Assembly (NCBI GenBank): GCA_964594005.1
Contig: CAZQKP010000001.1
Location: 1-40,638, forward strand
Source: an uncultured Candidatus Saccharibacteria bacterium
GTDB taxonomy: Bacteria; Patescibacteriota; Minisyncoccia; Phycocordibacterales; DATDWN01
DNA length: 40,638 nt
Direction: 5' to 3'
The position numbers and the translations under genes were made by a program. Positions 17,616-40,638 of this stretch are shown piece after piece (position 1 is the stretch's first letter; each line of letters starts with the position of its first letter). The notes under the pieces are model-generated. The model made no database searches. It saw only the letters and a program-made list of their open reading frames with translations, and had not been told where the DNA came from.

Positions 17616-18281
17616 ATGAATGACGAAAATAAAATAGAAATACCAGATTACGTAAAAAAGCTACCACCGGAAGCCCAGGATTTTATATTTAGTTCTATCT
17701 GGGAAGATCGAACTAAGGAAGTTGCCCGAAAGTATTCGCTTAACGAAAGCCAGACTGAAAGCTTAATAAACACAGTTGCATTAGTTCTTATCGGAGTTGA
17801 AAATCCGGATGATCTCTACACAGATCTGTTGGAGGATTTAAAAACTTCTAAACTTTTAACTGAACAAATTATTTCTGAATTAGAGAAGAGAGTCTTCGAA
17901 TTTGGCGTAAAAATTATTTTGGACAACAAAAAACCAGAAAGCGATATCAAAGAAAAACCTGACACAACAATACCAGAGCTGAAGCCAAATCTACTACCTG
18001 AAACAGAAAAAGTAGCCAGCTCTTTTAAACCAATAAGTATTCCCAAGGAAGAAGTTGCTTCGGGCATAACTTATCCAGCCAAAAATGAAGAGACAGTACA
18101 ACAACCCCTAAAAGTCCCAGAAGTTAATATTGCCTCAGAAAAAGTTGAGACAAAACCAATAACCCCACCAACTATAGTGGAGACTAAACTTAAGGCAGTT
18201 ACCCCAAGTATTTCAGAAACACCTAGCTCAGATGCCCCCAAAAAATACACAGTTGATCCCTATCGCGAGCCAATAAACTAA
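17616..18281 (+). CDS. Hypothetical protein (T4SS-like cluster)
   Basis: ATG at 17616 lies about 11 nt after AGGAGG and 1 nt after the previous stop. The track's start at 17508 only adds the alternative reading of the upstream Pro-rich tail. No TM; Pro/Lys/Glu-rich C-terminus. Confidence 0.6.
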   Translation: MNDENKIEIPDYVKKLPPEAQDFIFSSIWEDRTKEVARKYSLNESQTESLINTVALVLIGVENPDDLYTDLLEDLKTSKLLTEQIISELEKRVFEFGVKIILDNKKPESDIKEKPDTTIPELKPNLLPETEKVASSFKPISIPKEEVASGITYPAKNEETVQQPLKVPEVNIASEKVETKPITPPTIVETKLKAVTPSISETPSSDAPKKYTVDPYREPIN

Positions 18282-18282
18282 A

Positions 18283-18717
18283 ATGAGATACCAAGTCCCT
18301 CAATTTATTGAAATAGAAGATAAGGTTATCGGACCATTTACCGTTAAACAGTTCGTTTACTTAGTAGGAGGTGGGGGTATGGCTTTTATTTTTTACAATT
18401 ACCTCAACTTATTTATAGCGATCCCGTTAATGGTTGGAGCTGTCGGATTGGGTCTCTCTTTAGCTTTTTATAAAATAAATAATAAACCGTTTATTGATTT
18501 TCTAGAGTCTGCTTTTATGTATTACACTAGAGGCAATCTCTATATCTGGCGAAAGGAGGTGAAAAAAATTGAACCCGCAAAAGAAAAGGCTGCCCAAGCT
18601 AATACTGTAACCGTTCCAAGGCTTTCTCAAAGCAAACTAAAGGAATTGTCTTGGTCTTTGGACATAAATGAAAATCTAAATCCAGTTACGAGTGAAAGCG
18701 GCAAGAGAACAAGCTAG
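18283..18717 (+). CDS. PrgI-family (VirB3-like) T4SS membrane protein
   Basis: MRYQVPQFIEIEDKVIGPFTVKQFVYLVGGGGMAFIFY followed by a second TM helix, which is the PrgI-family pattern; it lies just upstream of VirB4. Confidence 0.65.
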   Translation: MRYQVPQFIEIEDKVIGPFTVKQFVYLVGGGGMAFIFYNYLNLFIAIPLMVGAVGLGLSLAFYKINNKPFIDFLESAFMYYTRGNLYIWRKEVKKIEPAKEKAAQANTVTVPRLSQSKLKELSWSLDINENLNPVTSESGKRTS

Positions 18718-18738
18718 TTTTCGTGATATAATTTAAAT

Positions 18739-19389
18739 ATGGCAATCAGTTCCAAGGCAACTCAAGAGTTCGTTCCCATAAAAGAAGTCAAGGATGGCAT
18801 CATGATTTTGAAAAATGACTCCATGCGCGGGGTAGTTTTGGCTTCTTCTATCAACTTTTCTTTAAAATCGGACGACGAAAGAAACGCGATCATTTTACAA
18901 TTCCAAGATTTTTTAAACTCGCTCGATTTTCCGGTAGAAATTTCAATCGAATCTAGGCGCCTAGACATTAGACCCTATATTGCTCTCTTGGAAGGACGCT
19001 ATAAAGAACAGACCAATGACTTAATGAAAATACAGACCAGGGAATATATCGATTTTATTAAAAAATTTACGGAAAGTACCAGCATTATGACTAAAAGCTT
19101 TTTTATCATAGTGTCATACGATCCGGCACTAGTTAAACTTCAAGGACCTAATGCGGGCTTGAGTAAATTAAATATTTTTAAAAAAAAATCTGCCAATAAA
19201 CAACAAGAAGAAAAACAGGCAAATTTTGAGGAGAATCGTACACAGCTAGAGCAAAGAGTCTCGGTAGTTGAGCAAGGTCTTTCCCGTTGTGGTATTCGAG
19301 TTATTCGTTTGGGTACGGAAGAAGTGATTGAGTTGTTTTATAAAATATTTAATCCAGGGGACACAGAAAAACCAATTAAATTAAACTAA
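18739..19389 (+). CDS. Hypothetical protein resembling a free-standing VirB4/TraC N-terminal domain
   Basis: TQEFVPIKEVKDGIMILKNDSMRGVVLASSINFSLKSDDERNAIILQFQDFLNSLDFPVEISI follows the pattern of the N-terminal region of Gram-positive VirB4 homologues. TAATG overlap with virB4. Confidence 0.55.
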   Translation: MAISSKATQEFVPIKEVKDGIMILKNDSMRGVVLASSINFSLKSDDERNAIILQFQDFLNSLDFPVEISIESRRLDIRPYIALLEGRYKEQTNDLMKIQTREYIDFIKKFTESTSIMTKSFFIIVSYDPALVKLQGPNAGLSKLNIFKKKSANKQQEEKQANFEENRTQLEQRVSVVEQGLSRCGIRVIRLGTEEVIELFYKIFNPGDTEKPIKLN

Positions 19390-21203
19390 TGGCCTTACTC
19401 GATTTTTTAAAACCAAAAAAAGAAGAACCGATCTCAACTATTTTGCCGCAGGAGATTTATGACTCTAGCAGCCTAGAGTTAAAAGATGTTATTGCCCCCA
19501 GTGCACTTAAGGTTACTCCCAAAGAAATAAATTTAGGCGAAAAAATTGTGCGAGGATTTTTTGTTATTTCTTACCCAAGATACCTCTCGGAAAACTGGTT
19601 TGCGCCGATAATTAATCTGGACAAAATTTTTGATGTTTCTATTTTTGTTACTCCCATAGACTCCGCGGGCGCTTTAAAAACTTTCCAGAAAAAGGTAGCG
19701 GAGGTCCAAAGCCAGATTAATACCCGCGAAGCTAAGGGGCTTGTTCGAAATCCAATGCTGGATACTGCCTATCAAGACTTGGAGAGTCTACGTGATCAAC
19801 TGCAACAAGCCCAAGAGAAGCTTTTTGATGTCGGTCTATATATAAGTATCTACGCCGATAGTATGGAGGAACTGGATAAAATAGAGTCAGAAATAAAATC
19901 AATCTTGGAGGCAAAATTGGTTTACCTTAAGCCCGCTCTCTTTCAGCAAGAGCAATCTTTCCGCACATCAATTCCCTTGGGCACAGACGAACTTAAAGTT
20001 TATAGTAAATTAAACTCCTCACCCCTGTCACTTCTTTTTCCTTTTATTTCCTTCGACCTGACCTCGGATAAAGGAATTCTCTACGGCATCAATCGCCACA
20101 ATTCTTCTCTAGTTTTATTTGATCGCTTTTCCTTGGAGAATTACAACTCCATTACTTTTGCCAAGTCCGGTGCGGGCAAATCATTTTGCACCAAGCTAGA
20201 GATACTTCGTACACTTATGTTTGATACAGACGTTATTGTAATTGACCCAGAAAGAGAGTACGAATATCTAGCTGAAGCAGTGGGCGGCAGGTACTTCAAC
20301 ATTTCCCTTAATTCTGAACACCATATAAATCCTTTTGAACTGCCACACCCATCGGAAGACGAATCATTTTCTTCAGTCTTACGTACTAATATCATTAACT
20401 TAGTTGGTCTCTTTAGAATAATGATGGGCGGCTTAACACCTGAGGAAGACGCTATTATTGATCGCGCCATTTCAGAAACATACGCCCTAAAAGATATAAC
20501 TCCGGATTCTAATTTTGAGAATTTAGAGCCGCCTCTTATGTCCGATTTTGAATTAGTTCTCTCGGGTATGGAGGGGGGAGACTCTCTAGCACAAAGACTC
20601 TCCAAATACACTCGCGGCACTTGGGCTGGTTTTATTAATAAGCCATCCAATGTAGATATAAATAAAAAATTTATTGTTTTCTCTTTGCGCGATATGGAGG
20701 ATGAACTGAAGCCGATTGCTATGTATATTGTAATGCACTTTATCTGGAGTGCCATTAGAAAGAACTTAAAGAAAAGATTACTTGTGGTTGACGAGGCATG
20801 GTGGATGATGAAATCAGATGACACCGCTTCTTTCCTGTTATCTCTTGCCAAAAGAGGCCGAAAATATTATTTAGGGCTTGCAACAATTACTCAGGACGTA
20901 GATGATTTCATGAAGTCAAATTACGGCACGCCAATTATTACGAACTCTTCAATTCAAATTCTATTAAAGCAGTCACCAACGGTGATAGATAAACTACAAA
21001 CTGTCTTCAACTTAACCGATGAAGAAAAATACCTTCTCCTCGAGTCTGACGTGGGGGAGGGAATATTTTTTGCGGGCTTAAAACATGTGGCTATAAAAAT
21101 AATCCCATCCTACACCGAAGAACAAATCATTACCTCTGATCCATCCCAAGTTCTAGCTATTAAAGCGGCAAAAAGACAACTGGAAGAATCCCAAAATGGA
21201 TAA
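19389..21203 (+). CDS. virB4: VirB4/TraC-type T4SS ATPase
   Basis: Walker A FAKSGAGKSF, Walker B LLVVDEAWWMM, an ATITQDVDDF-type sensor region and 604 aa. The N-terminal domain has the VRGFFVISYPRYLSENWF pattern. Confidence 0.85.
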   Translation: MALLDFLKPKKEEPISTILPQEIYDSSSLELKDVIAPSALKVTPKEINLGEKIVRGFFVISYPRYLSENWFAPIINLDKIFDVSIFVTPIDSAGALKTFQKKVAEVQSQINTREAKGLVRNPMLDTAYQDLESLRDQLQQAQEKLFDVGLYISIYADSMEELDKIESEIKSILEAKLVYLKPALFQQEQSFRTSIPLGTDELKVYSKLNSSPLSLLFPFISFDLTSDKGILYGINRHNSSLVLFDRFSLENYNSITFAKSGAGKSFCTKLEILRTLMFDTDVIVIDPEREYEYLAEAVGGRYFNISLNSEHHINPFELPHPSEDESFSSVLRTNIINLVGLFRIMMGGLTPEEDAIIDRAISETYALKDITPDSNFENLEPPLMSDFELVLSGMEGGDSLAQRLSKYTRGTWAGFINKPSNVDINKKFIVFSLRDMEDELKPIAMYIVMHFIWSAIRKNLKKRLLVVDEAWWMMKSDDTASFLLSLAKRGRKYYLGLATITQDVDDFMKSNYGTPIITNSSIQILLKQSPTVIDKLQTVFNLTDEEKYLLLESDVGEGIFFAGLKHVAIKIIPSYTEEQIITSDPSQVLAIKAAKRQLEESQNG

Positions 21204-22026
21204 TGGAGAAGAAAATGGATCCAAAATAAGCTTAATGGAGTGGGGGCTAGTAATTGGTGCCTTATTCGTTTGTGATCTTTTACAAGCTGGCCTCGATTTA
21301 TTGGTTATTGGTGAATTTACAAATCCTTTTTTTGATTTAATTATTGGAATGAGTTTCGGTTTGTATCTCCAGATGAGAGGAGAAAGTCTAACTAAACCTT
21401 CGAGAGCTTTTGGATTACTTGGAACTTTTCTTTTGGAAATGGTTCCTCTAATTGATGACTTGCCATTATGGAGTCTAGATGGACTTTTTAATATGCTTGT
21501 CTCTAGGCCAGATATTCTAAATAAGGTTAGCATGGGCATACCTGGATCTGGAGTGGTAAATAAATTAATTATTCCAGCCAAGACAGAACCAAACAAACCC
21601 GCTCAAGAAAAAGCGGAAAGGCTACGCGAATTGCCTGCGAAGAATACAAATCCAGGCTTTAATAGTAAGGAAAACGCAGTTGCCGCGAGAGAAAGATTAA
21701 ACAACGTTACAGATAAATATAACTTGGATACAGATAAAAACAAAGAGCCGATAAATGTAAACGAACAAAACTTAAAAGTGGCTAAGGATAAAAATCAAAC
21801 TGTAGATGAACAAAATTGGGAAGCAGCTAGAAGAAAGAACCGACAAAAAACAGTAGAGGAAGAAAATTTGGAGGCGGCTAGAAACAAAAACTCGGGAGAG
21901 GTCTATAATTTGAAGGGGGACGAGGCAATAAGACTAAGAAATGAGAGGCTGGAAGTAGCTAGAAGATTGGGCCTGCACTCAAGCGGAACGTCTCAAGAGA
22001 CTTCGGATCTAGAAAAAGCAGCCTAG
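21196..22026 (+). CDS. Hypothetical membrane protein with a repetitive charged tail
   Basis: 3-4 hydrophobic helices in the first ~100 aa. The tail has three ~14-aa repeats: NEQNLKVAKDKNQT / DEQNWEAARRKNRQKT / EEENLEAARNKNSG (about 21760-21895). 8-nt overlap with virB4. Confidence 0.6.
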   Translation: MDNGEENGSKISLMEWGLVIGALFVCDLLQAGLDLLVIGEFTNPFFDLIIGMSFGLYLQMRGESLTKPSRAFGLLGTFLLEMVPLIDDLPLWSLDGLFNMLVSRPDILNKVSMGIPGSGVVNKLIIPAKTEPNKPAQEKAERLRELPAKNTNPGFNSKENAVAARERLNNVTDKYNLDTDKNKEPINVNEQNLKVAKDKNQTVDEQNWEAARRKNRQKTVEEENLEAARNKNSGEVYNLKGDEAIRLRNERLEVARRLGLHSSGTSQETSDLEKAA

Positions 22027-22075
22027 TGTGCATAATCCACGTTTAGATACAATTTGACGTGTTACAATTATAGAG

Positions 22076-23062
22076 ATGAAGTATGTTTTTTCGACCATAC
22101 TGGCCTTATCTTTATTGCCAGCAATAGGTTTTGCGCAAATACCGGGAGTTGATAATTCAGATTTAAATGTAGAGCTAATTCCCGAAAGTCCCCACCCCAA
22201 CGAAGTGGTTAACGTTAGATTAACCGACTACAGTATTGATCTGGATTCTTCCCGAATAATCTGGAAAATAAATGGGGTTGTAAAACAATCTGGCACGGGG
22301 AATAAAACCTTCAGTTTCACTGTGGGTGATTTAAACAGTCATACTATTCTGACTATCGATGTCTCTGCCGCTTCCGGCCAAAATCTAGAGAAAATTGTTG
22401 AGGTAAGGCCTTCGAGTGTAGATATTTTATGGCAATCAGAAAGTTTTACTCCGCCATTTTATCGCGGCAAGGCATTGTTTAGTTATGAAAACAAAATTAC
22501 TTTTATCGCAATTCCCCATATAAGTAGTGGTAGTGGCGAGATTCCAACCAAGAATTTAATCTATAAATGGGAGATGAATAGCAATGTGATAGATGATTCC
22601 TCGGGCTACGGCAAAAATACTTTCACCACTATTGGTTCCCTCATCGCACGGCCACTTGAGGTAACTGTAGAAGTTTCGTCTTTAGATGGGATTTTCTCAG
22701 GCAGAGGACATATTATTACCACACCTGTTGATCCTAAACTCTTGCTCTATCAGGACGATCCGATTTATGGTTTACAATTTCAAAAGGCTCTAAACAATAA
22801 TTTAAATTTGGGGGGAGAAGAAATAGAAGTTATGGGTATACCATTTTATTTTGGGATAAAAGATCTTAGTTCTCCATATATTTCTTTTAAATGGTCGATA
22901 AACGGAGTCCCAACTGATAATGATGTGAGTGCCAATACTCAAGTGTTTAGAAAAAAAGAGGGAACTAGCGGCACCTCCAACATCTCTCTTAGAGTTGAGG
23001 ACTCTCAAAAGATCCTGCAAGCTGCTACCAGTAATTTTAATTTAAATTTTAACAATGAGTAG
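22076..23062 (+). CDS. Hypothetical secreted protein
   Basis: Signal peptide MKYVFSTILALSLLPAIGFA/Q. Beta-rich composition with internally similar segments (IIWKINGVVKQSGTG... / ISFKWSINGVPTDND...). Confidence 0.65.
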   Translation: MKYVFSTILALSLLPAIGFAQIPGVDNSDLNVELIPESPHPNEVVNVRLTDYSIDLDSSRIIWKINGVVKQSGTGNKTFSFTVGDLNSHTILTIDVSAASGQNLEKIVEVRPSSVDILWQSESFTPPFYRGKALFSYENKITFIAIPHISSGSGEIPTKNLIYKWEMNSNVIDDSSGYGKNTFTTIGSLIARPLEVTVEVSSLDGIFSGRGHIITTPVDPKLLLYQDDPIYGLQFQKALNNNLNLGGEEIEVMGIPFYFGIKDLSSPYISFKWSINGVPTDNDVSANTQVFRKKEGTSGTSNISLRVEDSQKILQAATSNFNLNFNNE

Positions 23063-23921
23063 AAGAATTTTAAAATTAGCCTTGGTTCTTTTAACCTTAT
23101 TTGGTCTTCAATTTTCTTTGGCCTTAGCTCAAAGCCAACAAATTCAATACCAGGTTTTAGCGCCTCTAGACAACGAACCAGCCACAATAACACTTCCTCA
23201 ATACATACCCTTCATAATTAACTTGTCTATTGGTATAGCCGCAGTCATGGCCTTCGTCATGATTACTTTTGGGGGAATTACATACGCTACAACTGACGCC
23301 TTACAAAAAAAACAAGATGGTAGAAAATTTATTGAAAATGCGATTATTGGTTTACTTCTGGTTATAAGCGCCTGGGTTATTCTTAATACAATTAATCCTC
23401 AAACACTTGATTTTAGTTTTTTAAGTAAATTACCCACCGCGCAAGTCACAGCGCCCACAAATGTGATTCCTGGCACTCCCATGACCCCCGAGCAACTTGC
23501 TGATGATGCTAATGTAAGATCCATACTGACCTCCCAATCTGGTGGCCAAGTAGTGGTGGCTCTAGCTCCCTGTGCGAGTGGCCAAACTAAGGGTTGCACA
23601 AATGTAAATGGTTTGCCGGTAAATGCTATCGACGGTCTCACTCGCTTGTCTAAAGACTGCAATTGTCAGATTATCGTGACCGGTGGAACAGAAGGAGGTC
23701 ATGTATCTCACGGTCCCGGCAAACCCGTTGTGGATTTGAGATCTCAAAATAGTGCTTTAACTGCCTTGTTGAGTAAATTTGATTCAAGAGCAGCTAACCC
23801 GTTTTCTAAACTGGCATTTGGAGTCACCCTTAAGGATCGCACCCATGCTAATTTCTCATATGAGACTGCTGAAGACCCTAACTCAAGCGGAGCGCATTGG
23901 CATGTAAGCTTTGGCCCATAA
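23055..23921 (+). CDS. T4SS pilin-like (VirB2/TrbC-type) module fused to a putative LAS/M15-like zinc peptidase domain
   Basis: Signal peptide, then IPFIINLSIGIAAVMAFVMITFGGITYATTDALQKKQDGRKFIENAIIGLLLVISAWVILNTINP, a two-helix pilin pattern. The C-terminus has GGHVSHGPGKPVVDL (S-x-H-x-x-G-x-x-x-D-like) and SGAHWHVSF (WH motif). Confidence 0.6.
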   Translation: MSRRILKLALVLLTLFGLQFSLALAQSQQIQYQVLAPLDNEPATITLPQYIPFIINLSIGIAAVMAFVMITFGGITYATTDALQKKQDGRKFIENAIIGLLLVISAWVILNTINPQTLDFSFLSKLPTAQVTAPTNVIPGTPMTPEQLADDANVRSILTSQSGGQVVVALAPCASGQTKGCTNVNGLPVNAIDGLTRLSKDCNCQIIVTGGTEGGHVSHGPGKPVVDLRSQNSALTALLSKFDSRAANPFSKLAFGVTLKDRTHANFSYETAEDPNSSGAHWHVSFGP

Positions 23922-23922
23922 T

Positions 23923-25146
23923 ATGTCTCGTAAATCTGTCTTTATTTTAATATCTGCAATTCTAGGTTTATTTTTAATATGCTTGATTGCTTATTATTTT
24001 ATTCTTTTAGGGAATGGTGGAAGCACAAGCAACACTCCAAGTGTTTTTAAAAATTTTTTTCCATTTGGAGGAAACGATAATGTTACAGCCAATCCGCCAG
24101 GAACTACTACTAACCAAAATCCTCCCATAAACCCTCCGGCTGAAAATTTTACTCAAAAGCTTAGAGAATTATCCGCCGAACCAGTCTCAGGCGCTGGGAG
24201 TTTGGATCTAAAAGCTGGCACAATTGTGCGTTACATTGAAAAAGCAACTGGTCATATTTATGAGGTGGAAATGTTTTCTCCAAACAAGACCAGGATATCC
24301 AACACAACCCTACCGCTGGTTTATGATGCACAATGGGGCAATAAAAATAATTCCTTAATTGCCAGGTATTTAAAAGACGACAATGAAACAGTAGACACCT
24401 ATGGTTTAACCCTTAAAAACTCGACCAGTACAGATAGTACGGTCTCGGGCACCCCTTTTCCAAAGAATATTTCAGATGTTTCCGTGTTTGATACAAGTGT
24501 GTTTTATCTGGTAGTAACACCGGACAACTCTTCTGGGTTTGTTTCCACCTTTGCGGGAGGACAAAAGAAACAGATTTGGAACTCCCCAATTACTGAACTC
24601 AACTCTCAATTTGTGAACTCTAAAACAGTAGCCCTTAACACCAAACCTTACCCTGGCATTCCGGGTTATCTCTATTTAGTCGATACAGGCACAGGTGGGG
24701 TTAAAAAAGTTTTGGGTGATGTTAATGGTCTTTCTACTTTAGTTAGCCCGGACGTAGCCCAAATAATTTATTTAAGCCAAGATAACATTGCCAAAATGTC
24801 TATTTGGAGTTCCAAAAGTAAAGCCTCAACCGATATAAGCCCCGCTACATTCCCAGAAAAATGTGTCTGGAGTAAAAAAAATACACAATTTGTTTATTGC
24901 GCCGTGCCTAAAAGGATTATTGGCCCAAATACATTAATCAATTGGTATCAGGGTTTGGAAGAAGAAAGTGATGATATTTGGAAATATGATTTAAAAACCA
25001 ATACCTCCGCCATTATAGAAAATCTCTCCACAGACGCTCGAGTAGACATTGATGTGATAAAACCATTTCTCTCTCAAAATGAACAATACCTAGTGTTTAT
25101 GAATAAAATTGATAATAGCTTGTGGAGTTTGGATTTGACCAAATAG
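23923..25146 (+). CDS. Hypothetical membrane-anchored protein, probably beta-propeller-like
   Basis: TM anchor VFILISAILGLFLICLIAYYFILL, a Pro/Asn/Thr linker, then about 330 aa of beta-rich sequence. ATG at 23923 lies 1 nt after the previous stop. Confidence 0.65.
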   Translation: MSRKSVFILISAILGLFLICLIAYYFILLGNGGSTSNTPSVFKNFFPFGGNDNVTANPPGTTTNQNPPINPPAENFTQKLRELSAEPVSGAGSLDLKAGTIVRYIEKATGHIYEVEMFSPNKTRISNTTLPLVYDAQWGNKNNSLIARYLKDDNETVDTYGLTLKNSTSTDSTVSGTPFPKNISDVSVFDTSVFYLVVTPDNSSGFVSTFAGGQKKQIWNSPITELNSQFVNSKTVALNTKPYPGIPGYLYLVDTGTGGVKKVLGDVNGLSTLVSPDVAQIIYLSQDNIAKMSIWSSKSKASTDISPATFPEKCVWSKKNTQFVYCAVPKRIIGPNTLINWYQGLEEESDDIWKYDLKTNTSAIIENLSTDARVDIDVIKPFLSQNEQYLVFMNKIDNSLWSLDLTK

Positions 25147-26362: not shown

Positions 26363-26480
26363 ATGTTATAAAATTCATCTAATTTTCACTGTAAACAATT
26401 TATACACATATTATTAACATAAGAGTAGCTTTCCGGCAACTATCTACTTTATTTATTATAGATATAATTCTTAGAACAAT
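26363..26480. promoter_or_regulatory. Divergent rpmH / dnaA control region, possibly part of oriC
   Basis: 118-nt AT-rich spacer between divergent rpmH and dnaA. One near-consensus DnaA box, TTATACACA, at 26400-26408. Confidence 0.4.
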
Positions 26481-27047
26481 ATGGATAATAAAAAACTCTG
26501 GGACAGCGTTTTGGTCGAAATGGAACTTTCTCTCTCAAAGCCTAATTTCAACACCTGGTTTAAGGATACAGCAATTGTAAGACTTGATGGTAGCACTGTT
26601 TATCTGGGTGTACCTAATACGTTTGTTCAGGACTGGCTGTCCAGTAAATTCCACAACTCTATTCTAAAAGTATTAAGATCGCTCGCCGGCAATGTCCAGT
26701 CACTACAGTATGTAATCCATAAAGAAGATGGAGGGCATCATGTTGAGCCCAAAATATTACCTATTACCAGAGAGCTGCCGATTGCCGATACATATATTAA
26801 CAAAGAAGACGGACTCAACCCCCGCTACACCTTTGAAACATTTATTGTGGGACCGTTCAATGAATTTGCCTATGCTGCAAGCCAAGCAGTTATAAACAAA
26901 CCAGGTATTGTTTATAATCCACTCTTTATTTATGGTGGCACTGGACATGGCAAGACCCACCTAATCCAAGCTGTGGGAAATTTTCTAAAAAACGCGAGCG
27001 GCCGAAAGGTTTTTTACACCACTTCTGAAAAATTTGCCCATAAGTAA
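26481..27047 (+). CDS. dnaA: DnaA, N-terminal segment (domains I-II and Walker A), ending at an in-frame TAA
   Basis: LWDSVLVEMELSLSKPNFNTWF..., NPRYTFETFIVG, NPLFIYGGTGHGKTHL (Walker A). Stops at 27045-27047 inside the conserved SEKF..(F/Y).NAI.. segment. Confidence 0.85.
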   Translation: MDNKKLWDSVLVEMELSLSKPNFNTWFKDTAIVRLDGSTVYLGVPNTFVQDWLSSKFHNSILKVLRSLAGNVQSLQYVIHKEDGGHHVEPKILPITRELPIADTYINKEDGLNPRYTFETFIVGPFNEFAYAASQAVINKPGIVYNPLFIYGGTGHGKTHLIQAVGNFLKNASGRKVFYTTSEKFAHK

Positions 27048-27116
27048 AAAAATGCAATCCAACTTAATAAACCCAATCTTTTTAAAGGAAAATAACGCAA
27101 ATACGATGTTTTAATT

Positions 27117-27815
27117 ATGGATGATATCCAATTTTTCTCTGGCAAGGCCAAGGTGCAGGAGGAATTATTCCATCTTTTTAACCACCTCTATGACAACAAT
27201 AAGCAAATTATCTTTTCCTCGGACAAACACCCGGGATTAATTCAAGACCTAGAGGAAAGACTGAAATCTCGTTTTAGTGCTGGCATGGTAATTGACATTC
27301 CGGCGCCAGACAACGAGTCCCGTGCCGCAATAATAAGATCTAAATCAACCAATTCTGCCTTTCCACCATCGAAAGAAACTATTGATTACCTAGCTTATTC
27401 AGTGGTCGGCAACATTAGAGAGCTAGAAGGCATAATAAATTTCATTAATGCCCAAGCTCAACTAAGAAACAGGGAAGTTTCTATAACTGAAATAAAAAAT
27501 TATGTTAAAAATAATGCGCGACCCAAAAAACTTGTCTCACCCAAGGAGGTGGTCAAAACCGTGGCAGATTTTTATAACATTGAGGAACAACTGATTTATG
27601 ACAAAACCAGAAAAAAAGAAATTATTAAGCCGCGTCAAATAATTATGTACATTCTGCGAGAAGACTTTAACATTTCTTACCCCGCGATTGGTGAGAAGTT
27701 GGGAGGTAGAGACCACACTACCGTTATGCACTCCTGCGAAAAAATAAAAAATGATATGAAAGCGGACGAAGCTTTAATTCAAGAGATCAATCAGTTACGC
27801 TCTGTCTTTGTGTAA
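27117..27815 (+). CDS. dnaA: DnaA, C-terminal segment (Walker B, sensors, domain IV), in the same frame as 26481-27047
   Basis: (VLI)MDDIQFFSGKAKVQEELFHLFN (Walker B), IIFSSDKHP, RLKSRFSAGMVIDIPAPD, and domain IV IIMYILREDFNISYPAIGEKLGGRDHTTVMHSCEKI. 27117-26481 = 636, which is divisible by 3. Confidence 0.85.
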   Translation: MDDIQFFSGKAKVQEELFHLFNHLYDNNKQIIFSSDKHPGLIQDLEERLKSRFSAGMVIDIPAPDNESRAAIIRSKSTNSAFPPSKETIDYLAYSVVGNIRELEGIINFINAQAQLRNREVSITEIKNYVKNNARPKKLVSPKEVVKTVADFYNIEEQLIYDKTRKKEIIKPRQIIMYILREDFNISYPAIGEKLGGRDHTTVMHSCEKIKNDMKADEALIQEINQLRSVFV

Positions 27816-28032
27816 AAACTTCTGTATAACTTGTTAATTCAATAAAAAAAAATGTGAATAAAGAAATAAAACCTGGGGAAGAAAAATACAAAAATGAAGT
27901 TGTTATGAAGCTGTCCACACCAAAACGGAATAAAAAATTGCCAAAAAACAAACTAGATTATGAAAATTTTATGAACTATCCCCATATCCACATCCCTAAT
28001 AGTGCTTTTGTTTTAAATAAAAAATAAATACT
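27816..28032. promoter_or_regulatory. dnaA-dnaN intergenic DnaA-box cluster (candidate oriC)
   Basis: 217-nt AT-rich spacer with TGTGAATAA (27853-27861, 1 mismatch), CTGTCCACA (27911-27919, 2 mismatches), CTATCCCCA (27976-27984, 2 mismatches) and ATATCCACA (27984-27992, 1 mismatch), compared with TTATCCACA. Confidence 0.5.
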
Positions 28033-29130
28033 ATGAATATTGAGTGTATAAAAGAAAAGTTGGTTTACGCGGTGAGCAAAGCCGAAAAAATTACAGGTAA
28101 AAACATTACATTGCCAGTTTTGAATTGTCTACTTTTGGAAGCTGATAAGACCAATCTCAAAATCAAGGCTACCAACTTGGATCTTGGTATTGAAATTAAT
28201 TTACCAGTTAAAGTGATAAAACCAGGTAGAGTAGCAGTACCAGGCCAGGTTTTATATAATTTCATCTCAAATTTAACCAATGATAAGAATATTACTCTGG
28301 AAGTTGTGGATAATAACTTGAAGATTGAAACAAAACATTCTAAGTCCCTCATAAAAACTCAACCAGTAGATGACTTCCCTAATATCCCAAGGGTTTCTGG
28401 TACACCATTTACACTTAATTCGCCATCACTTTTGAGGGGATTAAAATCAGTTATGTACAGTGCCTCTGTCTCATCCATACGGCCAGTTCTCTCTAGTATC
28501 CTGGTCTCCTCCGAAGAAGATAGTGTGATTTTTGTTGCAACCGACTCGTTTAGATTGGCAGAAAAGAAATTGCCGGTTAAAAAACACAAAGAATTCACTC
28601 AAATATTAATTCCATTTAAAAATGTAGGAGATATTGTGAGATCTCTGGAAGATATTAAAGAAGATGTGGAGGTCAGTTTAAACGATAACCAGATCTCTTT
28701 TGTGTTTAATGACCTGTATCTGACATCTAGAGTTATAGATGGGGTATTTCCGGATTACAAACAGATCGTGCCTAAAGAAACAAAAACAGAAGTCGTTTTA
28801 CTAAAGCAGGATTTGGTAAGTTCTCTTAGAATTTCTAATATTTTTTCGGATAAATTTAGCCAAGTTGTTTTTTCAATCTCACCCAAAAATAAGACATTTA
28901 AGATTACCACCAAGAATATGGACATAGGCGAGAATACGAATACATTAGACGCTGTAATAAAAGGGGAGGAGCTTAATATTAGTTTCAATTACAAATACAT
29001 TATCGATTGTTTTAATTCTATTGATTCCGACAGTGTTTCACTTTCATTCTCGGATAACAATAAGCCCATGGTCATAAAAGGAGTTTCCGATAAGTCCTTT
29101 CTCTATTTAGTTATGCCAATGAATAAATAA
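28033..29130 (+). CDS. dnaN: DNA polymerase III beta sliding clamp
   Basis: 365 aa with LPVLNCLLLEA..LKIKATNLDLGIE, ATDSFRLAEK and a PMVIKG...LYLVMPMN C-terminus. Canonical position after dnaA. Confidence 0.93.
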   Translation: MNIECIKEKLVYAVSKAEKITGKNITLPVLNCLLLEADKTNLKIKATNLDLGIEINLPVKVIKPGRVAVPGQVLYNFISNLTNDKNITLEVVDNNLKIETKHSKSLIKTQPVDDFPNIPRVSGTPFTLNSPSLLRGLKSVMYSASVSSIRPVLSSILVSSEEDSVIFVATDSFRLAEKKLPVKKHKEFTQILIPFKNVGDIVRSLEDIKEDVEVSLNDNQISFVFNDLYLTSRVIDGVFPDYKQIVPKETKTEVVLLKQDLVSSLRISNIFSDKFSQVVFSISPKNKTFKITTKNMDIGENTNTLDAVIKGEELNISFNYKYIIDCFNSIDSDSVSLSFSDNNKPMVIKGVSDKSFLYLVMPMNK

Positions 29131-33036: not shown

Positions 33037-33214
33037 ATTATTTATAAAGGTTTTTAATCTTTACCAAGTCTATTAACTTAATTTCTTGGTGATTTCCATA
33101 TTTGTATCAAATTGTTTATTTTTTGCAAACCTATTTTATTGTGGATAACTAGAGTTAATAAACCTTGATAGATAAAAGCTTTCTAATTGTCTATATATAT
33201 GCTTAAATTCCCCT

Positions 33215-35604: not shown

Positions 35605-35629
35605 AAATAGCTCAGGTTGGAGCTATTTT
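35604..35629. terminator. Bidirectional terminator hairpin between convergent gatB and the MerR-like ORF
   Basis: aaaatagctc-aggttg-gagctatttt: a 10-bp stem with A/T flanks. Confidence 0.65.
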
Positions 35630-35880
35630 TATTTATCCTCTTCCTCCAAATGTTTAACAATTAGTTTCCTGATATCTTTTTTCGGACTTCTTCGTAGGCC
35701 CGCGTTTGTCTCAATTTCCTGAATTACATTCTCAAGGTCCTCGATCTTGTAAACACGGTAGTTGTTCATGGGGTGTCGATGAGCCTTGAGTTTCCCATTG
35801 TTATCCCAGTTTCGCAAAGTAAGGGGAGAGACCCCAAGTATCTTTGCCGCCTGCTTTATTGTTATGTATAAATTAGCCAT
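35629..35880 (-). CDS. Stand-alone MerR/excisionase-type HTH protein (resembles the N-terminal HTH of IS607-type serine recombinases)
   Basis: ITIKQAAKILGVSPLTLRNWDNNGKLKAHRHPMNNYRVYKIEDLENV matches the MerR-like HTH pattern (GVS..TLR.WD..G.L...R....YR.Y). At 83 aa it has no effector or catalytic domain. Confidence 0.65.
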   Translation of the reverse strand: MANLYITIKQAAKILGVSPLTLRNWDNNGKLKAHRHPMNNYRVYKIEDLENVIQEIETNAGLRRSPKKDIRKLIVKHLEEEDK

Positions 35881-36303
35881 ATTTATTTTATAAGCTTAAC
35901 AAAGATTAATAATAATTATATATATGTTTAATATCATTATATAAGTCTTTGTCTAATTTATCAATCAATTATTTCGGGGCATGTGGAGAATTAACCTTGA
36001 GTATTTTTACTTGCTATTACTCTATTTTTCATAGAGTGAGTGTTATTTGGCTAACTATATAAGCCCTAGTTTGCATGTTTCAGTGCTATCAAAAGGTGGT
36101 AGAGATAATATTTTGGAGTCAGGCCCGAACAGAACATGTTCGATGCAACACTTACTAGATGTTCACTACCATAAAATATTTTAGCTAATTGCCCTCTTGT
36201 ATATCCGATATTTTGCTAATTAACAACATATTTTTATATCCCTGTTCAGATTTGATAAATTCTCCACATACCTTTAAATAGAAAATATTGATATGATAAT
36301 CCT

Positions 36304-36687
36304 ATGTCCAATAAAAAATCTCACATAAGCTATGAAGAGCGTTTTTGTATTGAGAGACTCCTAAAGGCTAACTGTAGTGTTAGTTTCATTTCAAGGATCC
36401 TAGAAAGGGGAGTATCGACAATCAATAAAGAAATAAAGCTAAATTCTATTAATTCCATGTACGTGGCTGCTAAGGCCCAAGAAAGGGCAAATAATGGGCA
36501 AAGAGTAAAAAAACAAATGGCAAACAAGGTAGTAAAAAGCCATGCACTAAGACTGGAGGTTGACCGTATGATAAAAGCAAAAATGACACCAGAAAAGATA
36601 TCTAGGGAATTGCTAGGCAGCGAGAGCGTCTATAGGGTAAGTAGCAAAAGTATAAGGAAGTACATACTATACATTAATAAACATTAA
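36304..36687 (+). mobile_element. Truncated IS30-family transposase: N-terminal HTH region only, no DDE domain
   Basis: HISYEERFCIERLLKANCSVSFISRILERGVSTINKEIKLN...YVAAKAQERANNGQRVKK...MIKAKMTPEKISRELLG mirrors the IS30 transposase N-terminus (H.t.eER..Ie.l...g.S...IA..lgRs.sTIsREi.RN ... y.A..A......R...). The ORF stops at 127 aa, inside two pairs of 10-bp tandem repeats. Confidence 0.55.
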
Positions 36688-37007: not shown

Positions 37008-37039
37008 CAAAATCTTGGATATTTCCCAAAATCTTGGAT
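37008..37039 (+). repeat. 13-bp direct repeat caaaatcttggat x2, 19 bp apart start to start, upstream of the giant ORF
   Basis: Copies at 37008-37020 and 37027-37039. The second runs into the palindrome cttgg-atcg-ccaag (37034-37047). A perfect DnaA box TTATCCACA lies at 37057-37065. Confidence 0.8.
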
Positions 37040-37120
37040 CGCCAAGAAATTGAGATTTATCCACAGTTTTTTTCATTTTTTTGTAACTTACAGGCGCCCA
37101 AAACATATATAATTAGTGTA

Positions 37121-40100
37121 ATGGGTTCTGACTTATTTTTTGACAGCAAGAAATATATTCCAGCCAAAGAAGCAAGTGCGCTTACCGGCTACTCCAAGGA
37201 TTACATCGGACAGCTTTGCCGAAATAAAAAAGTCTTAGCAAAAAGAGTTGGTCACACTTGGTATGTTTGTGAAGAGTCAATCCGCGAATATAAGGATTCT
37301 CCAACCTCTTATGATTTTTCTAAGAATTTTTATGGTAAGTTAACTCAGGATATTTCTACTGGTGCACAAACAAGACAAGAGTATAAGCCAATCAAACTAG
37401 AGTTTCCAGAGAAAAAGCTTTTTCCAAAGACGTCCCAATTTATTCATGAATTTTTGTTTGCTTATGATTTCAGCCTAGGAGCGAAGATTTTACCCATTAC
37501 TCTAGCTCTTATTTTTACTCTTGGCCTTGTTTCCCTAAAGGACAGAGTGTTTAGTTTCCGAGAGGGGGTGAGGGAAGTTAAAAACTCTTTTAACCAGGTT
37601 TCTAGCAATTTTTCCGCTAATGGCGTAACCATTGCAGATGTCTCAGAGAAGATAAACACTTCACCATATGACCTTTACAATTCAACGGATGGACTTCTGG
37701 ATTCATATGCGGGCAAACTTTCTGGCACCTATCTTTCTTTGGGGAATGTGTTAAACACTGTCAGCTTTTCTTTTGTAAATCAAACCTTCTTAGCTCTAAA
37801 AAATCCGCCAGCATATATTTTGGGTACACTTGAAAAACTTTCGCTAAGCGATAAAAAATTTACTGACAAAACTATTTCCGGTATAACTTCTTCCCTATCA
37901 ACTAATAGCACAAAAGTTTTAGCCTTTGTCTCCGATACATTGGGCGGTGCATCTTATGCAAATAATTATTTTTTGGATAGAACAAAAAATTTAACTGCTG
38001 CAGTTGCAACAGCAGCAAGTGATGAATTAAATCCTGTTGACCATTCCGGTTTAGTTGTTTATCGCACTATAAATAATTTTTTCCAAAATTCAATTTATTT
38101 ACCGCTAGCGAGCTTGTTTAATAGTTCTCCAAATATTGTTAACACAACTTATGTTGCTACAACTCAAAGCCAAACAAAAAATATTCCAAAAGTTGTTGCG
38201 CAAAATACAACTTCCTCGCAGCCAACTAGAATTGTAAATACAACCAATGTAGTTGAAAGAATAATTGAAAGACCGGCAGACTATGCCGTAACTAAAACAG
38301 AATTAGAAGCAAGACTTCAGGAATTCAATAACAGCATCATGTCTAAGTTCTACTCCCTCTCGACTGGGAGTGGTGGCTCGGTCACAAATATTTACCAGGA
38401 AATTGCCGGAAGTCAAAGAATCGACCAGCTAAGCGGAACAGTCATCACAAATCCATCAATTTCTGGAGGTTCAATTAACAACACTGCGGTAAATGCGACG
38501 AGTTTGTCAGTTTCCAACACAAGTACTTCCACTTTTGCCGGTGGTATCGCAGTCACAGGCGGTTGCGTTTCTGTTAACGGTACTTGTCTCGGTACTGGTG
38601 GAGGTGGAGGTGGTACACCAGGAGGGAATAATACTGATGTGCAATTTAATAATGGCGGAACATTGGGTGGTTCGGATAATTTTGTTTTTGATAACACCAA
38701 CGGTCGTGTTGGAATTGGTACCACTTCACCATACGCACCACTTTCTGTTTCGGGTAAAGTAGTGGCAGATAATTTTGTAGCAACTTCTACCACCGCAACT
38801 TCAACTTTTTCGGGAGGCTTAAGTATAATCGGAGGACTTGATTTAAACTCCGGATATATTTTTGGTGGCGGACTTTCTTCTTGTTCGGGAATTGCAGATA
38901 AATTAATTTGGAATTCTACAACTGGAAAATTTGGTTGTGGTACAGACGCGGGGGCGGGTGGTGGAATTACTAACCTGGGTTCAGGTTACGCATCCACAAC
39001 TGGATCAACAATTGCATTTTCTACAACCACTACATCATTCAATGGATTAACTTTTGGTCAGAACATTGTTCCAACAGCTTCTGCTCTAACATTTACCCCA
39101 ACAGTTTCTGGCACGCTAACAGTTCCTGGTGGTGGTACAGGCTGGTCGAACATTCAAGCAGGAACTGTTCTATTAGGTAACGGTAGTGGTTCTCTGTCGA
39201 CAACATCAGCCGGAATAAACGGCCAAGTTCTTGCACTTGTTTCTGGCACGCCAACTTGGGTTGCGACTACAACTGCTGGCACAGGTCTTTCTTACAATGG
39301 AACTTCCTTTAACGTAAACACAACTCAAAATATTTCTAATCTTTCAAATCTTTCTTCAAACGGAGTAGTTTACACAGCTGGCGGAAATGGCACACTAAAT
39401 ACACAAGGAACTTCTACTCCGACCATCGGAGCATCACTTTCTTACTCGGGCACGGTCGGTTATTTCTTGGGAGGTTCATCTGGCACACTTTCACTTAACA
39501 CCGGGAATGCCAACAATTGGACAGCACTCCAAACTTTTCTTAACTCATCTTCAACTCTTCTTTCGGCCTACACCGCTTACTTTGGTTCATCTGGTACAAC
39601 TACAATAACTTCAACTGGGGCAATTGGCATTGGCACATCCTCCCCGTATGCTCCACTCTCCGTAGTCGGCCAAATAGTCGCTTCCTACTTTACAGCCACC
39701 ACTACCGCAACTTCAACCTTTCCAACTCTGCTTGCTACGAATGCAACTACATCCAGGTTAGCTATAACTGGCATAACGGGTGCACTTCTTAAAACAGATT
39801 CAAATGGAAATATAATTCCTGCTACAGCTGGATCTGACTATGCAAATTTTACTTTCCCATTTACAGTAAATACTGGTTACAACTCTACTTCCACAGCTAT
39901 TGGATTTAATGGTCTTTTCTCAACTGCGTCATCCACTTTCTCATCCAATCTCTATCTTTCCAATCTTTCTCAAGGTTACACGTATTTGGGTTCTAATGGT
40001 CTAGTCCAAACAGTTTCGACTTCTACAATAGCAGCACAAGTATTTCCATTTACATCTAACTCGGGTTACAACTCAACCTCTACGACTCTTGGATTGACCG

Positions 40101-40638
40101 GGGGATTATTCTCTACCGCATCTTCTACTTTCTCTTCTTCACTCTATCTCTCGTCCCTGTCTCAAGGTTTTGCTTACACTGGATCAAATGGACAAGTAAA
40201 TACGATTGCATCATCGTCGATTAAACTTTCTTGGTTTAATAATGATGCAGGTTTTAGCCAGGATGAATTTACTCATCCTGCAGCAAGTCAAAGTGCCACA
40301 ACTTCTTTGGTGCTTCTTAATGGTAATGCTTCTTCCACTGGCATTTCAGCTAACTACGGATATTTTGGAGGAACAGGCACAACTACAATTGATTCAGTTG
40401 GCAGAATCACATTTGCATATTCATCATCAACTGCATACTCATCGTTTGTAAATTCATCTTCAACTAATGGATTTGCAGGGACATTAACTTTGGGAACACT
40501 AAGTGGTCCACTCCAAGCAGTCAATGGATTGGTCTCTGCTTCGTCTACTCTCTCAGTAAACGTTGGTGGCACAGGCTGGGGAAATATTCAGGCGAACACA
40601 ATTCTTCTTGGCAATGGAACTCAGAGACTTTCAACAAC
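37121..40638 (+). CDS. Giant repetitive surface protein with N-terminal excisionase-type HTH and one TM helix; open at the window end (at least 1172 codons)
   Basis: I translated frame 2 by hand from the ATG at 37121 to 40638 and found no stop. N-terminus KYIPAKEASALTGYSKDYIGQLCRNKKVLAKRVGHTWYVCEESIREY (HTH_17-like); TM ILPITLALIFTLGLVSL; then Ser/Thr/Gly/Asn-rich repeats. Not in the supplied track, presumably because no stop falls inside the window. Confidence 0.8.
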   Translation, partial: MGSDLFFDSKKYIPAKEASALTGYSKDYIGQLCRNKKVLAKRVGHTWYVCEESIREYKDSPTSYDFSKNFYGKLTQDISTGAQTRQEYKPIKLEFPEKKLFPKTSQFIHEFLFAYDFSLGAKILPITLALIFTLGLVSLKDRVFSFREGVREVKNSFNQVSSNFSANGVTIADVSEKINTSPYDLYNSTDGLLDSYAGKLSGTYLSLGNVLNTVSFSFVNQTFLALKNPPAYILGTLEKLSLSDKKFTDKTISGITSSLSTNSTKVLAFVSDTLGGASYANNYFLDRTKNLTAAVATAASDELNPVDHSGLVVYRTINNFFQNSIYLPLASLFNSSPNIVNTTYVATTQSQTKNIPKVVAQNTTSSQPTRIVNTTNVVERIIERPADYAVTKTELEARLQEFNNSIMSKFYSLSTGSGGSVTNIYQEIAGSQRIDQLSGTVITNPSISGGSINNTAVNATSLSVSNTSTSTFAGGIAVTGGCVSVNGTCLGTGGGGGGTPGGNNTDVQFNNGGTLGGSDNFVFDNTNGRVGIGTTSPYAPLSVSGKVVADNFVATSTTATSTFSGGLSIIGGLDLNSGYIFGGGLSSCSGIADKLIWNSTTGKFGCGTDAGAGGGITNLGSGYASTTGSTIAFSTTTTSFNGLTFGQNIVPTASALTFTPTVSGTLTVPGGGTGWSNIQAGTVLLGNGSGSLSTTSAGINGQVLALVSGTPTWVATTTAGTGLSYNGTSFNVNTTQNISNLSNLSSNGVVYTAGGNGTLNTQGTSTPTIGASLSYSGTVGYFLGGSSGTLSLNTGNANNWTALQTFLNSSSTLLSAYTAYFGSSGTTTITSTGAIGIGTSSPYAPLSVVGQIVASYFTATTTATSTFPTLLATNATTSRLAITGITGALLKTDSNGNIIPATAGSDYANFTFPFTVNTGYNSTSTAIGFNGLFSTASSTFSSNLYLSNLSQGYTYLGSNGLVQTVSTSTIAAQVFPFTSNSGYNSTSTTLGLTGGLFSTASSTFSSSLYLSSLSQGFAYTGSNGQVNTIASSSIKLSWFNNDAGFSQDEFTHPAASQSATTSLVLLNGNASSTGISANYGYFGGTGTTTIDSVGRITFAYSSSTAYSSFVNSSSTNGFAGTLTLGTLSGPLQAVNGLVSASSTLSVNVGGTGWGNIQANTILLGNGTQRLST

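Follow-up and report, generated by a model that had tools for sequence, protein, structure and literature searches.

A giant open-ended gene near dnaA in a Patescibacteria chromosome, predicted to join a winged helix-turn-helix domain to a membrane-anchored, fibre-like ectodomain

The window analysed here, a stretch of 40,638 nucleotides from an uncultured bacterium, ends inside a very large gene that starts at an ATG at 37121 on the plus strand and runs for 1172 codons without a stop to the last letter at 40638, its 3' end lying beyond the window. The visible protein joins a predicted helix-turn-helix (HTH) domain, a single predicted transmembrane (TM) helix and a long ectodomain, and is the local member of a family of HTH-TM-ectodomain proteins in Patescibacteria. 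Given the base composition of the region, a frame of this length would escape all stops with a probability of about 5e-31; each of the remaining five frames of 37121-40638 carries 47-79 stops. The nearest in-frame stop 5' of the ATG is a TAA at 36998, the sole alternative upstream in-frame start candidate is a TTG at 37034, and the ATG, together with its promoter, is kept across orthologous loci. An earlier note, made from the letters of this DNA, had described the same open frame and its absence from the open reading frame (ORF) track; the translation agrees, and the gene is missing from the track because the program that lists ORFs skips those running off the source sequence. Its 3' end was not recovered, since exact-protein look-ups of the two upstream genes returned only Logan contigs of 1.2 kb and 2.2 kb (SRR12313479), and a 47-nt exact search of metagenome contigs for an extension gave no match. 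The comparisons set out below show that 37121-40638 is a genuine chromosomal gene of a Paceibacteria-type bacterium (Patescibacteria/Candidate Phyla Radiation).

Two word-indexed protein searches returned proteins of Minisyncoccia and Parcubacteria, mostly annotated at NCBI as 'helix-turn-helix domain-containing protein, partial', which have in common an N-terminus of the form M(G/V)SD(L/I)FF(E/D)NKKY, an HTH, one TM helix and a 'QRID' stalk motif. When one genome per species was scanned, 278 relatives emerged, and the locus counts given throughout rest on the best 80 of these 278, all from Patescibacteria-type metagenome-assembled genomes (with Zambryskibacteria, Nomurabacteria, Taylorbacteria, Paceibacterota and Parcubacteria among the groups named) except for one labelled Gammaproteobacteria (L065). 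An HTH and a single TM helix occur together in 77 of the 79 related ORFs of at least 200 aa, the TM helix lying at aa 75-310, so that the architecture which the earlier note had proposed to survey (HTH_17, TM helix and repeats) is found across dozens of Patescibacteria genomes. As in the window, the contig end cuts the gene in 56 of the 80 relatives, and we ascribe the contig end inside the window gene to repeats, which break assemblies. Complete members measure between 237 aa and 3,008 aa, and in two more no stop is reached by about 3,400 aa, where the fetched DNA ends. Across the family the ectodomain varies in length between about 50 aa and more than 3,400 aa. With a 72-aa N-terminal alignment as profile, an exhaustive search retrieved 10,120 representative clusters at E<=1e-3, of which 5,085 also reach E<=1e-10; its top matches are proteins of about 300-350 aa with two tandem HTH copies, one TM helix and a tail of about 50 aa. 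Full-text literature searches found no paper describing this HTH-TM-ectodomain family, which is widespread, conserved and uncharacterised.

The N-terminal domain of the window protein (aa 8-60; 37142-37300, plus strand) is a winged HTH of the MerR/excisionase type, HTH_17-like, as judged from Pfam, an AlphaFold2 (AF2) model, Foldseek and conservation. HTH_17, at aa 16-59, is the only Pfam domain in the visible protein (E 0.0047 and 17.6 bits with the whole protein, E 8.4e-5 and 23.2 bits with the isolated 72 aa), and the OmpR/PhoB-type Trans_reg_C domain gave no match; HTH_17 is matched by all 18 of the aligned family N-termini, with a best E of 4.7e-8, and several homologues carry a precomputed PF12728 annotation. 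The AF2 model of the domain has a predicted local distance difference test (pLDDT) score of 82.7, with a core at about 90 or above, and shows the order beta-beta-H-H-beta-beta-H (E-E-H-H-E-E-H), in which the HTH is followed by a beta-hairpin wing. Its nearest Foldseek folds, TraN (pIP501), mycobacteriophage Pukovnik Xis, BldC, GlnR, RacA and RdfS, are binders of double-stranded DNA, with TM-scores of 0.5-0.76 for the top neighbours, normalised to the target, and the sole PDB sequence matches of the N-terminal profile are TraN/AM32 (E 0.003-0.006). The recognition helix reads GYSKDYIGQLCR and the wing KRVGHTWYV, Lys/Arg residues are conserved in both, and the net charge of the domain is +6 in the window protein and +4.8 on average in the family. 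Seven residues are invariant in the aligned family N-termini (A18, Y24, D27, Y28, L32, R34 and W47), the domain as a whole is the best-conserved segment of the protein, with 63-88% identity to seven orthologs, and in part of the family it is tandemly duplicated. We conclude from sequence and model that the N-terminal domain is most plausibly a functional MerR/Xis-type winged helix, which would be expected to bind DNA.

A cytoplasmic connector of roughly 60 aa (37301-37486, plus strand), delimited by the family alignment and by comparison of identities and of TM flanks, follows the HTH. It opens with a conserved motif directly after the HTH, PTSYDFSKNFYG (aa 61-72), and closes with another ahead of the TM helix, HEFLFAYDFSLGAK (aa 109-122), the stretch in between (aa 73-104) being a variable linker; the linker between HTH and TM helix is merely 16-38% identical to those of the same seven orthologs, compared with 63-88% for the HTH. 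The single TM helix, ILPITLALIFTLGLVSL (aa 123-139; 37487-37537, plus strand), exceeds a Kyte-Doolittle hydropathy of 1.6, as no second segment does, and the translation contains no N-terminal signal peptide. Across 77 family members the flanks of the TM helix hold a mean of 2.8 Lys+Arg on the N side and 1.7 on the C side, with more on the N side in 52, equal numbers in 13 and fewer in 12, a balance that for the family as a whole favours an N-in topology. Since translocation of a folded, basic N-domain of 120 aa is unlikely, since the only four Cys residues of the ectodomain fall into two pairs (C482/C489 and C588/C606), and since the Pfam domains in the ectodomains of complete relatives are of surface types (Peptidase_S74, Bact_surface_Ig-like, HYR and LVIVD), the C-terminal part is probably extracellular. 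The first of the Cys pairs lies within GGCVSVNGTCLG, and the motif GGC(V/F)S(V/I)NG(T/V)C recurs among relatives. Read in this way, the protein would be single-pass and N-in, with a cytoplasmic HTH and with the TM helix acting as a signal-anchor.

Beyond the membrane, a juxtamembrane extracellular region (aa 140-375; 37538-38245, plus strand), found only in a subset of relatives, combines the conserved motif NPVDHSGLVVYRTINNFF with a Ser/Thr-rich spacer. It leads into a conserved stalk (aa 376-450; 38246-38470, plus strand) in which VVERIIE and a predicted helix, TKTELEARLQEFNNSIMSKFYSL, precede LSTGSGGSVTNIYQEIAGSQRIDQLSGTVITNPSISGGSI; the stalk consensus is VVERIIE - helix - LSTGSGG..QRIDQLSGT.I.NP.I.GG.I, with invariant Q-R-I-D and GG, and its identity to relatives is 47-92%. 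The HTH and this stalk, an extracellular coiled-coil, are the best-conserved parts of the protein, and the stalk is also found in a relative without an HTH (P0019). From there to the window end (38471-40638, plus strand) the protein is a mosaic of fibre modules rich in Ser, Thr, Gly and Asn, which together make up 56% of aa 481-1172. Motif searches place a Gly run at 38591-38626, IGT(T/S)SPYAPLSV modules at 38714 and 39629, GGTGW modules at 39131 and 40565 and tandem 63-aa FPFT repeats at 39854-40042 and 40043-40231, all on the plus strand. Against shuffles, the two copies of the 63-aa repeat (42/59 identical) reach z=25.7, the IGTTSPYAPLSV module pair (26/37) z=16.1 and the GGTGW module pair (22/34) z=13.6. 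These repeats exist at the protein level only and have diverged as DNA, Tandem Repeats Finder reporting three short arrays with periods of 6, 9 and 11 nt and not the 189-nt repeat. The modules are shared and shuffled among relatives P0001-P0007 and the HTH-less giants P0012, P0014-16 and P0019, and the closest ortholog (L003), likewise without a stop in its 2077 aa, matches aa 1-712 with 65% identity and has a rearranged module order beyond. What the earlier note had read from the letters therefore stands for all three parts of the visible protein: its excisionase-type N-terminus corresponds to the HTH_17 match at aa 16-59, which all 18 family N-termini bear out, its single hydrophobic helix is the one segment at aa 123-139, and every repeat motif lies where it was reported, each 13-26 standard deviations above shuffles.

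The C-terminus can be approached through complete relatives. A Peptidase_S74 and an immunoglobulin (Ig)-like domain stand at the C-terminus of P0011, P0013 and P0017 and of the positional ortholog L029, in which Peptidase_S74 occupies aa 1432-1483 and carries the SD-R-K cleavage motif (YGSDARMKEN), with matches to tail-fibre PHROGs in the same protein; complete relatives L035, L068 and L081 are without Peptidase_S74, and other complete relatives end in LVIVD repeats or in nothing recognisable. Peptidase_S74 is not present in the visible 1172 aa of the window protein, whose 3' end lies outside the window. A self-cleaving domain in relatives, the long, flexible and poorly conserved linker between HTH and TM helix, and the precedent of MYRF, which joins a DNA-binding domain, an S74-type domain and a TM helix, together suggest a latent transcription factor that is freed by proteolysis, following the logic of Notch, MYRF and regulated intramembrane proteolysis, with contact or tension on the fibre triggering cleavage near the membrane. 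We consider this improbable, because S74 lies outside the cell and far towards the C-terminus (at aa 1207-1625 in four complete relatives), from where its cleavage cannot free the HTH; moreover, no site-2-protease or other cleavage motif was found, and short forms with tails of about 50 aa retain both HTH and TM helix, which argues that membrane attachment belongs to the function.

The ectodomains of the wider family gave two further observations. Many short members end in a second ectodomain type, a conserved extracellular C-terminal domain of about 70 aa (..SFSDEVEV.PD.SG.AGVI.PVF....YVMVPV) with no Pfam match, seen in loci L050, L051, L052, L057, L063, L064, L071, L075 and L076. Another relative (L067; 1282 aa, 846-4691) is interrupted, in the part coding for the ectodomain, by an intein (Intein_splicing 6.2e-22) into which an NYN nuclease domain is inserted; a stand-alone NYN protein is also encoded in the window, at 3662-4213.

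We compared the layout of the promoter across 51 intergenic regions of orthologous loci. A -10 hexamer, TATAAT (37108-37113, plus strand), ends 7 nt 5' of the ATG in the window, and precisely this spacing between -10 box and start codon is seen in 35 of the 51 loci. Because of this short distance the mRNA would be leaderless or near-leaderless, which would explain the absent Shine-Dalgarno sequence and validates the start codon. At 64 nt 5' of the ATG stands a perfect match to the DnaA-box consensus, TTATCCACA (37057-37065, plus strand), which is conserved across the orthologous loci: in 49 of the 51, the coding strand carries a DnaA-box motif no more than about 90 nt ahead of the start codon, placed at -52 to -64 in about 41 of them and perfect in 36. 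Control of the giant gene may thus possibly be linked to DnaA. Other perfect DnaA boxes occur inside dnaN (28305-28313) and upstream of obg (33140-33148), and boxes with one mismatch at 26400-26408, 81 nt 5' of dnaA, and at 27984-27992, 49 nt 5' of dnaN; the 16 boxes with at most one mismatch in the window compare with 11.2 +/- 3.1 in shuffles, an excess that is not significant. The locus was also considered as an oriC and rejected as such, with only 1-2 DnaA boxes per intergenic region. A scan with Rfam and for tRNAs had no match upstream of the giant gene or elsewhere in the window, and a generic promoter and terminator scan upstream of the gene did not rise above shuffles.

The same intergenic region holds a palindrome, TCTTGGATCGCCAAGA (6-4-6; 37032-37047, strand-neutral), which lies 89 nt 5' of the ATG, is the only match in the 40.6-kb window, where 0.15 are expected, and is a candidate operator; an extra half-site, TCTTGGAT, is found at 37013-37020. 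The family consensus of the palindrome is TCTYG-N6-CRAGA, and 42 of its 77 matches in 1.03 Mb of loci stand no more than 250 nt ahead of the orthologous gene, at -78/-89 or at -32. Upstream of the long forms it is exact in 38 of 65 and present with at most one mismatch in 55 of 65, compared with backgrounds of 1.5% and 6.5%, respectively. In about 15 relatives a second copy, TCTCG-N6-CGAGA, lies 210-400 nt into the gene, inside the region coding for the linker between HTH and TM helix (for example, counted from the start codon, at +249 in L016, +255 in L029, +301 in L030, +234 in L036, +354 in L060 and +399 in L068); the window gene is without an internal copy. This arrangement suggests that the internal and upstream palindromes are paired operators, acting by looping or as a roadblock. 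The candidates for binding the palindrome are the HTH of the membrane protein itself, the MerR protein encoded next to it (MerR83, below) and an unlinked factor. MerR83 is the less likely as binder, the dyad upstream of its own gene being different and the palindrome occurring also in loci without an adjacent MerR gene.

In the window, which is a segment of the chromosome from the origin region, yidC (minus strand) is followed by dnaA, dnaN, penicillin-binding protein 1 (PBP1; minus strand), tyrosyl-tRNA synthetase (TyrRS), Obg and GatB, then by a MerR gene of 83 aa (minus strand), an HTH_38 gene of 127 aa and finally the giant gene, which lies about 10 kb from dnaA. In about 65 of the 80 loci the gene sits in the same slot (Obg, GatB, a small MerR gene on the opposite strand, then the gene), with GatB upstream in 62, Obg in 52 and a MerR gene in 50. 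Short forms (237-481 aa) and giants (up to >3,400 aa) occupy this identical slot, and we therefore regard them as positional orthologs. The divergent neighbour MerR83 (35629-35880, minus strand) is a MerR-family DNA-binding protein (MerR 1.6e-11, HTH_17 4.7e-9, SkgA/CarA-N-like) that is 76-95% identical in closer relatives, where it is better conserved than GatB (about 60-67%), and 45-68% identical in more distant ones. Its gene stays beside the giant gene in four of the five loci with an inverted GatB; MerR83 is a conserved neighbour and a candidate regulator or partner of the giant gene. The region upstream of it (35881-36010) has its own dyad, TAAACATTACTAAA ... TTTAGTAATGTTTA, unlike the TCTCG palindrome, and in many loci a DnaA-box-like motif lies about 90-110 nt upstream of the MerR gene. 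Between MerR83 and the giant gene, the 127-aa protein at 36304-36687 (plus strand) has the N-terminal HTH of IS30 type (HTH_38 1.3e-9) and is encoded by a stand-alone gene, conserved in the closest relatives and syntenic in nine related loci at 40-47% identity.

This setting bears on whether the gene could be cargo of a mobile element or prophage, that is, a tail-fibre gene with a remnant of an excisionase, or else two genes joined by an assembly or frameshift artefact. HTH_17 is an excisionase family, relatives match tail-fibre PHROGs and S74, small HTH genes lie upstream and the giant gene stands at a contig end, and the earlier note had placed the gene beside mobile-element remnants. The MerR and HTH_38 genes in question are, however, conserved within the dnaA-dnaN-PBP-TyrRS-Obg-GatB synteny, and the HTH_38 ORF is no decaying insertion sequence (IS), as it is not followed by a transposase catalytic domain. 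Annotation and a repeat scan found no phage genes, IS genes or terminal repeats in the region of the giant gene, the scan of the intergenic region giving only AT-rich chance matches and nothing resembling the terminal repeats of an element. Housekeeping synteny is kept in about 65 of the 80 genomes, 77 of 79 independent assemblies show the same in-frame fusion, the start codon is conserved along with the promoter, and the contig end is explained by repeat-induced breaks of the kind that also cut 56 of the 80 relatives. We therefore reject both forms of this explanation as highly improbable.

Our best reading, held with moderate confidence, is that the gene encodes a single-pass transmembrane DNA-binding protein whose outer part is a surface fibre resembling a tail fibre; the DNA binding and the role are what we infer from its parts. 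By comparison with complete relatives, the missing C-terminus would probably consist of a Peptidase_S74 intramolecular chaperone and an Ig-like domain, and an ectodomain ending in S74 would form a trimeric, tail-fibre-like surface appendage for contact or adhesion. The HTH, probably clustered by oligomerisation of stalk and fibre, would bind DNA at the membrane, with one of two outcomes: transcription could be regulated from the membrane in the manner of ToxR and CadC, or origin-proximal DNA could be tethered there. The constant HTH and TM helix would represent the core function, the fibre would provide a lineage-specific extracellular input or adhesin, and the expression of the gene itself would be controlled through the DnaA-box-like site and a dedicated palindromic operator. 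The earlier note had arrived at a membrane-anchored fibre or adhesin with a DNA-binding end, and in this the architecture has proved real and conserved, with modules common to proteins that end in S74 and Ig-like domains, and its DNA-binding half keeps the standing of a prediction.

Several observations weigh against this reading. The HTH_17 scores of the window protein (17.6 and 23.2 bits) fall below the curated Pfam cut-off of 27, and every Foldseek E-value of this small domain exceeds 0.04. Upstream of the short forms the palindrome is exact in 0 of 15 and present with at most one mismatch in 3 of 15, so that it is not a universal target of the HTH, and no covariation was evident between the half-site (TCTCG or TCTTG) and HTH residues, for which there were too few independent variants. 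The TM flanks of the window protein run contrary to the positive-inside rule, 1-2 Lys/Arg preceding the helix and 5 following it. Searches of Pfam, PHROG, NCBIfam and PDB sequences with the visible ectodomain gave no match, and S74 and trimer formation are extrapolated to the window protein from relatives, its own C-terminus being missing. An AF2 monomer of aa 362-581, which takes in the stalk and the first fibre modules and was built on a 15-sequence alignment, was poor (pLDDT 54.8), with the stalk helix alone confident (pLDDT 75-80); of the fold searches proposed in the earlier note, that of the N-terminus returned the MerR/excisionase folds described above, and the stalk with the first modules was too poorly modelled for one.

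A near-invariant recognition helix regardless of the ectodomain is also compatible with a conserved protein partner. On such an account the HTH would be a cytoplasmic protein-docking module, as the HTH of RodZ is for MreB, that anchors or sorts surface proteins by way of a cytoskeletal, division or export/assembly factor, and the protein would be purely a structural fibre or adhesin. The recognition helix GYSKDYIGQLCR is nearly invariant over unrelated ectodomains, as a single conserved partner would make it, HTH and TM helix form a portable N-terminal module that is found on at least four ectodomain types, and no cognate DNA site can be linked to the HTH. Yet the members are positional orthologs, in which a conserved DNA target would equally keep the recognition helix invariant; the close structural and sequence neighbours of the HTH are all binders of double-stranded DNA; the domain is strongly basic, with conserved Lys/Arg in wing and recognition helix; and its tandem duplication resembles the internal dimer of the DNA-binding TraN. 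We regard docking as unlikely and prefer the transmembrane DNA-binding protein. A bolder version of the latter, which we put forward as speculative and quite unlikely, would make the HTH and TM core a Paceibacteria-wide, single-copy, DnaA-box-controlled coupler of membrane and DNA, which would physically join chromosomal DNA near the origin, or else a small regulon, to the envelope, with the giant fibre, an extension in lineages such as this one, relaying surface contact or tension to the DNA through one polypeptide.

Patescibacteria, abundant and for the most part uncultured, possess very few regulators and, as is generally assumed, live attached to other cells; how they sense or hold their hosts is little understood. 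In this setting the family has a distinctive signature, namely a fixed position near the origin, a conserved promoter, a strongly conserved HTH and an ectodomain that varies from almost nothing to more than 3,400 residues, in relatives from at least 278 species genomes, and it may link contact outside the cell to DNA inside it. If the HTH binds DNA, these proteins would surpass all other transmembrane transcription regulators in size and be their most unusual type, combining a phage-derived fibre with a DNA-binding domain; if it does not, HTH and TM helix would constitute a new N-terminal anchoring module for surface proteins. Were the coupler to be real, it would be an undescribed device for contact-to-chromosome signalling or tethering in ultra-small symbiotic bacteria, acting for instance on attachment to a host cell. 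The giant genes are under-annotated as a consequence of the breaks that they systematically cause in short-read assemblies, where a contig end cuts 56 of 80.

Elsewhere in the window, dnaA (26481-27815) is broken by two in-frame TAA codons, at 27045-27047 and 27093-27095, 16 codons apart, in a frame that is otherwise intact. In eight orthologs the first site is Tyr (once Phe) within QEYVNAL and the second is Tyr within KEKYRKY; the stops could be a sequencing or assembly error beside A-runs, a pseudogene variant or recoding. At 13974-25146, a block of plus-strand ORFs, mostly without Pfam match and adjoining yidC-dnaA, encodes a VirB4/TraG-type P-loop ATPase (19389-21203; TraG P-loop 1.7e-28) and may be a type IV secretion or conjugation-like cluster. 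At the window start (1-2000), the first kilobase has a G+C content of 56%, compared with about 33-43% in most of the window, the ORFs are without Pfam match and no rRNA or tRNA was found; this end may be foreign DNA or a chimeric contig end.

Among known systems, the closest class is that of the transmembrane transcription regulators (TTRs), recognised by Demey et al. 2023 (PMC10269533), which includes ToxR, TcpP, CadC, BcrR and HigX, and in whose census of 50,302 proteins 56% are single-pass and 151, a rare subset, have HTH_17. Like them, the window protein has a DNA-binding-type domain and a membrane span in one polypeptide (HTH_17 at aa 16-59, TM helix at aa 123-139), and its layout, with the N-in orientation predicted, is that of single-pass TTRs whose DNA-binding domain is N-terminal and cytoplasmic and whose C-terminal domain is extracytoplasmic. 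The description as a ToxR-like regulator or DNA tether given in the earlier note is thus fair for the class (PMC10269533) and does not extend to the strict ToxR/CadC family, which has an OmpR-type domain (Trans_reg_C) where the window protein has one of MerR/excisionase type. Further differences are that known TTR sensors are small periplasmic domains, in place of fibres of 1,000 to >3,300 aa, that promoter binding and regulation from the membrane are here a prediction, with indirect signs in the DNA-binding fold neighbours, the basic domain and the orphan palindrome at the gene's own promoter, and that neither the main text nor the supplement of the census (PMC10269533) mentions Patescibacteria.

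TraN (ORF14) of the type IV secretion system of Enterococcus pIP501 (PDB 4p0y, 4p0z, 4pm3, 6g1t) is the best PDB sequence match (E 0.003-0.006) and among the top fold matches of the HTH (28% identity, probability 0.99), a similarity that is nevertheless weak. It has two excisionase-like HTH repeats, as do the two-HTH members of the family, but it belongs to a conjugative plasmid and is small, soluble and cytoplasmic, with neither TM helix nor ectodomain. RacA of Bacillus subtilis (PDB 5i44) has a MerR-type winged helix with a fold like that of the HTH here (probability 0.93) and anchors origin-proximal DNA at the cell pole, a concept that would suit a gene about 10 kb from dnaA with a local palindrome. 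RacA reaches the membrane indirectly, through DivIVA; it has no TM helix or ectodomain, the relation is at the level of the fold only, and tethering by the window protein would be an analogy.

RodZ has the same layout as the window protein, with an N-terminal cytoplasmic HTH, a single TM helix and a periplasmic domain, and its HTH binds a protein, MreB, and not DNA. Its HTH is of Xre type (HTH_25) and its periplasmic domain a small DUF4115, compared with HTH_17 and a giant fibre here, and Pfam detected neither HTH_25 nor DUF4115 in the window protein. MYRF is a eukaryotic membrane-bound transcription factor in which a phage-derived S74/ICA domain, trimerising and self-cleaving, is combined with a DNA-binding domain and a TM helix. 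Its order, DNA-binding domain, S74 and TM helix, differs from the HTH, TM helix, fibre, S74 and Ig-like domain of complete relatives, and cleavage by S74 can therefore not release the DNA-binding domain here; its DNA-binding domain is, moreover, of Ndt80 type and unrelated to the MerR type.

For the ectodomain, the nearest parallels are cellular Patescibacteria proteins annotated as 'tail fiber domain-containing' (P0011-P0013, S74-terminated), which have the modules IGTTSPYAKLSV..FTATSTTATSTF and GGTG..LLGNG in common with the window protein, and the phage tail fibres of endosialidase type, which end in a C-terminal S74 chaperone, as reflected in the matches of the ortholog L029 to tail-fibre PHROGs and to S74 with its SD-R-K motif. 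Phage tail fibres are encoded in a virion gene cluster, whereas the giant gene is chromosomal, syntenic and single-copy, and lies among dnaA, dnaN, PBP1, TyrRS, Obg and GatB; and, unlike a phage fibre, the window protein would be anchored in the membrane of its own cell by an N-terminal TM helix, with a predicted HTH on the cytoplasmic side.

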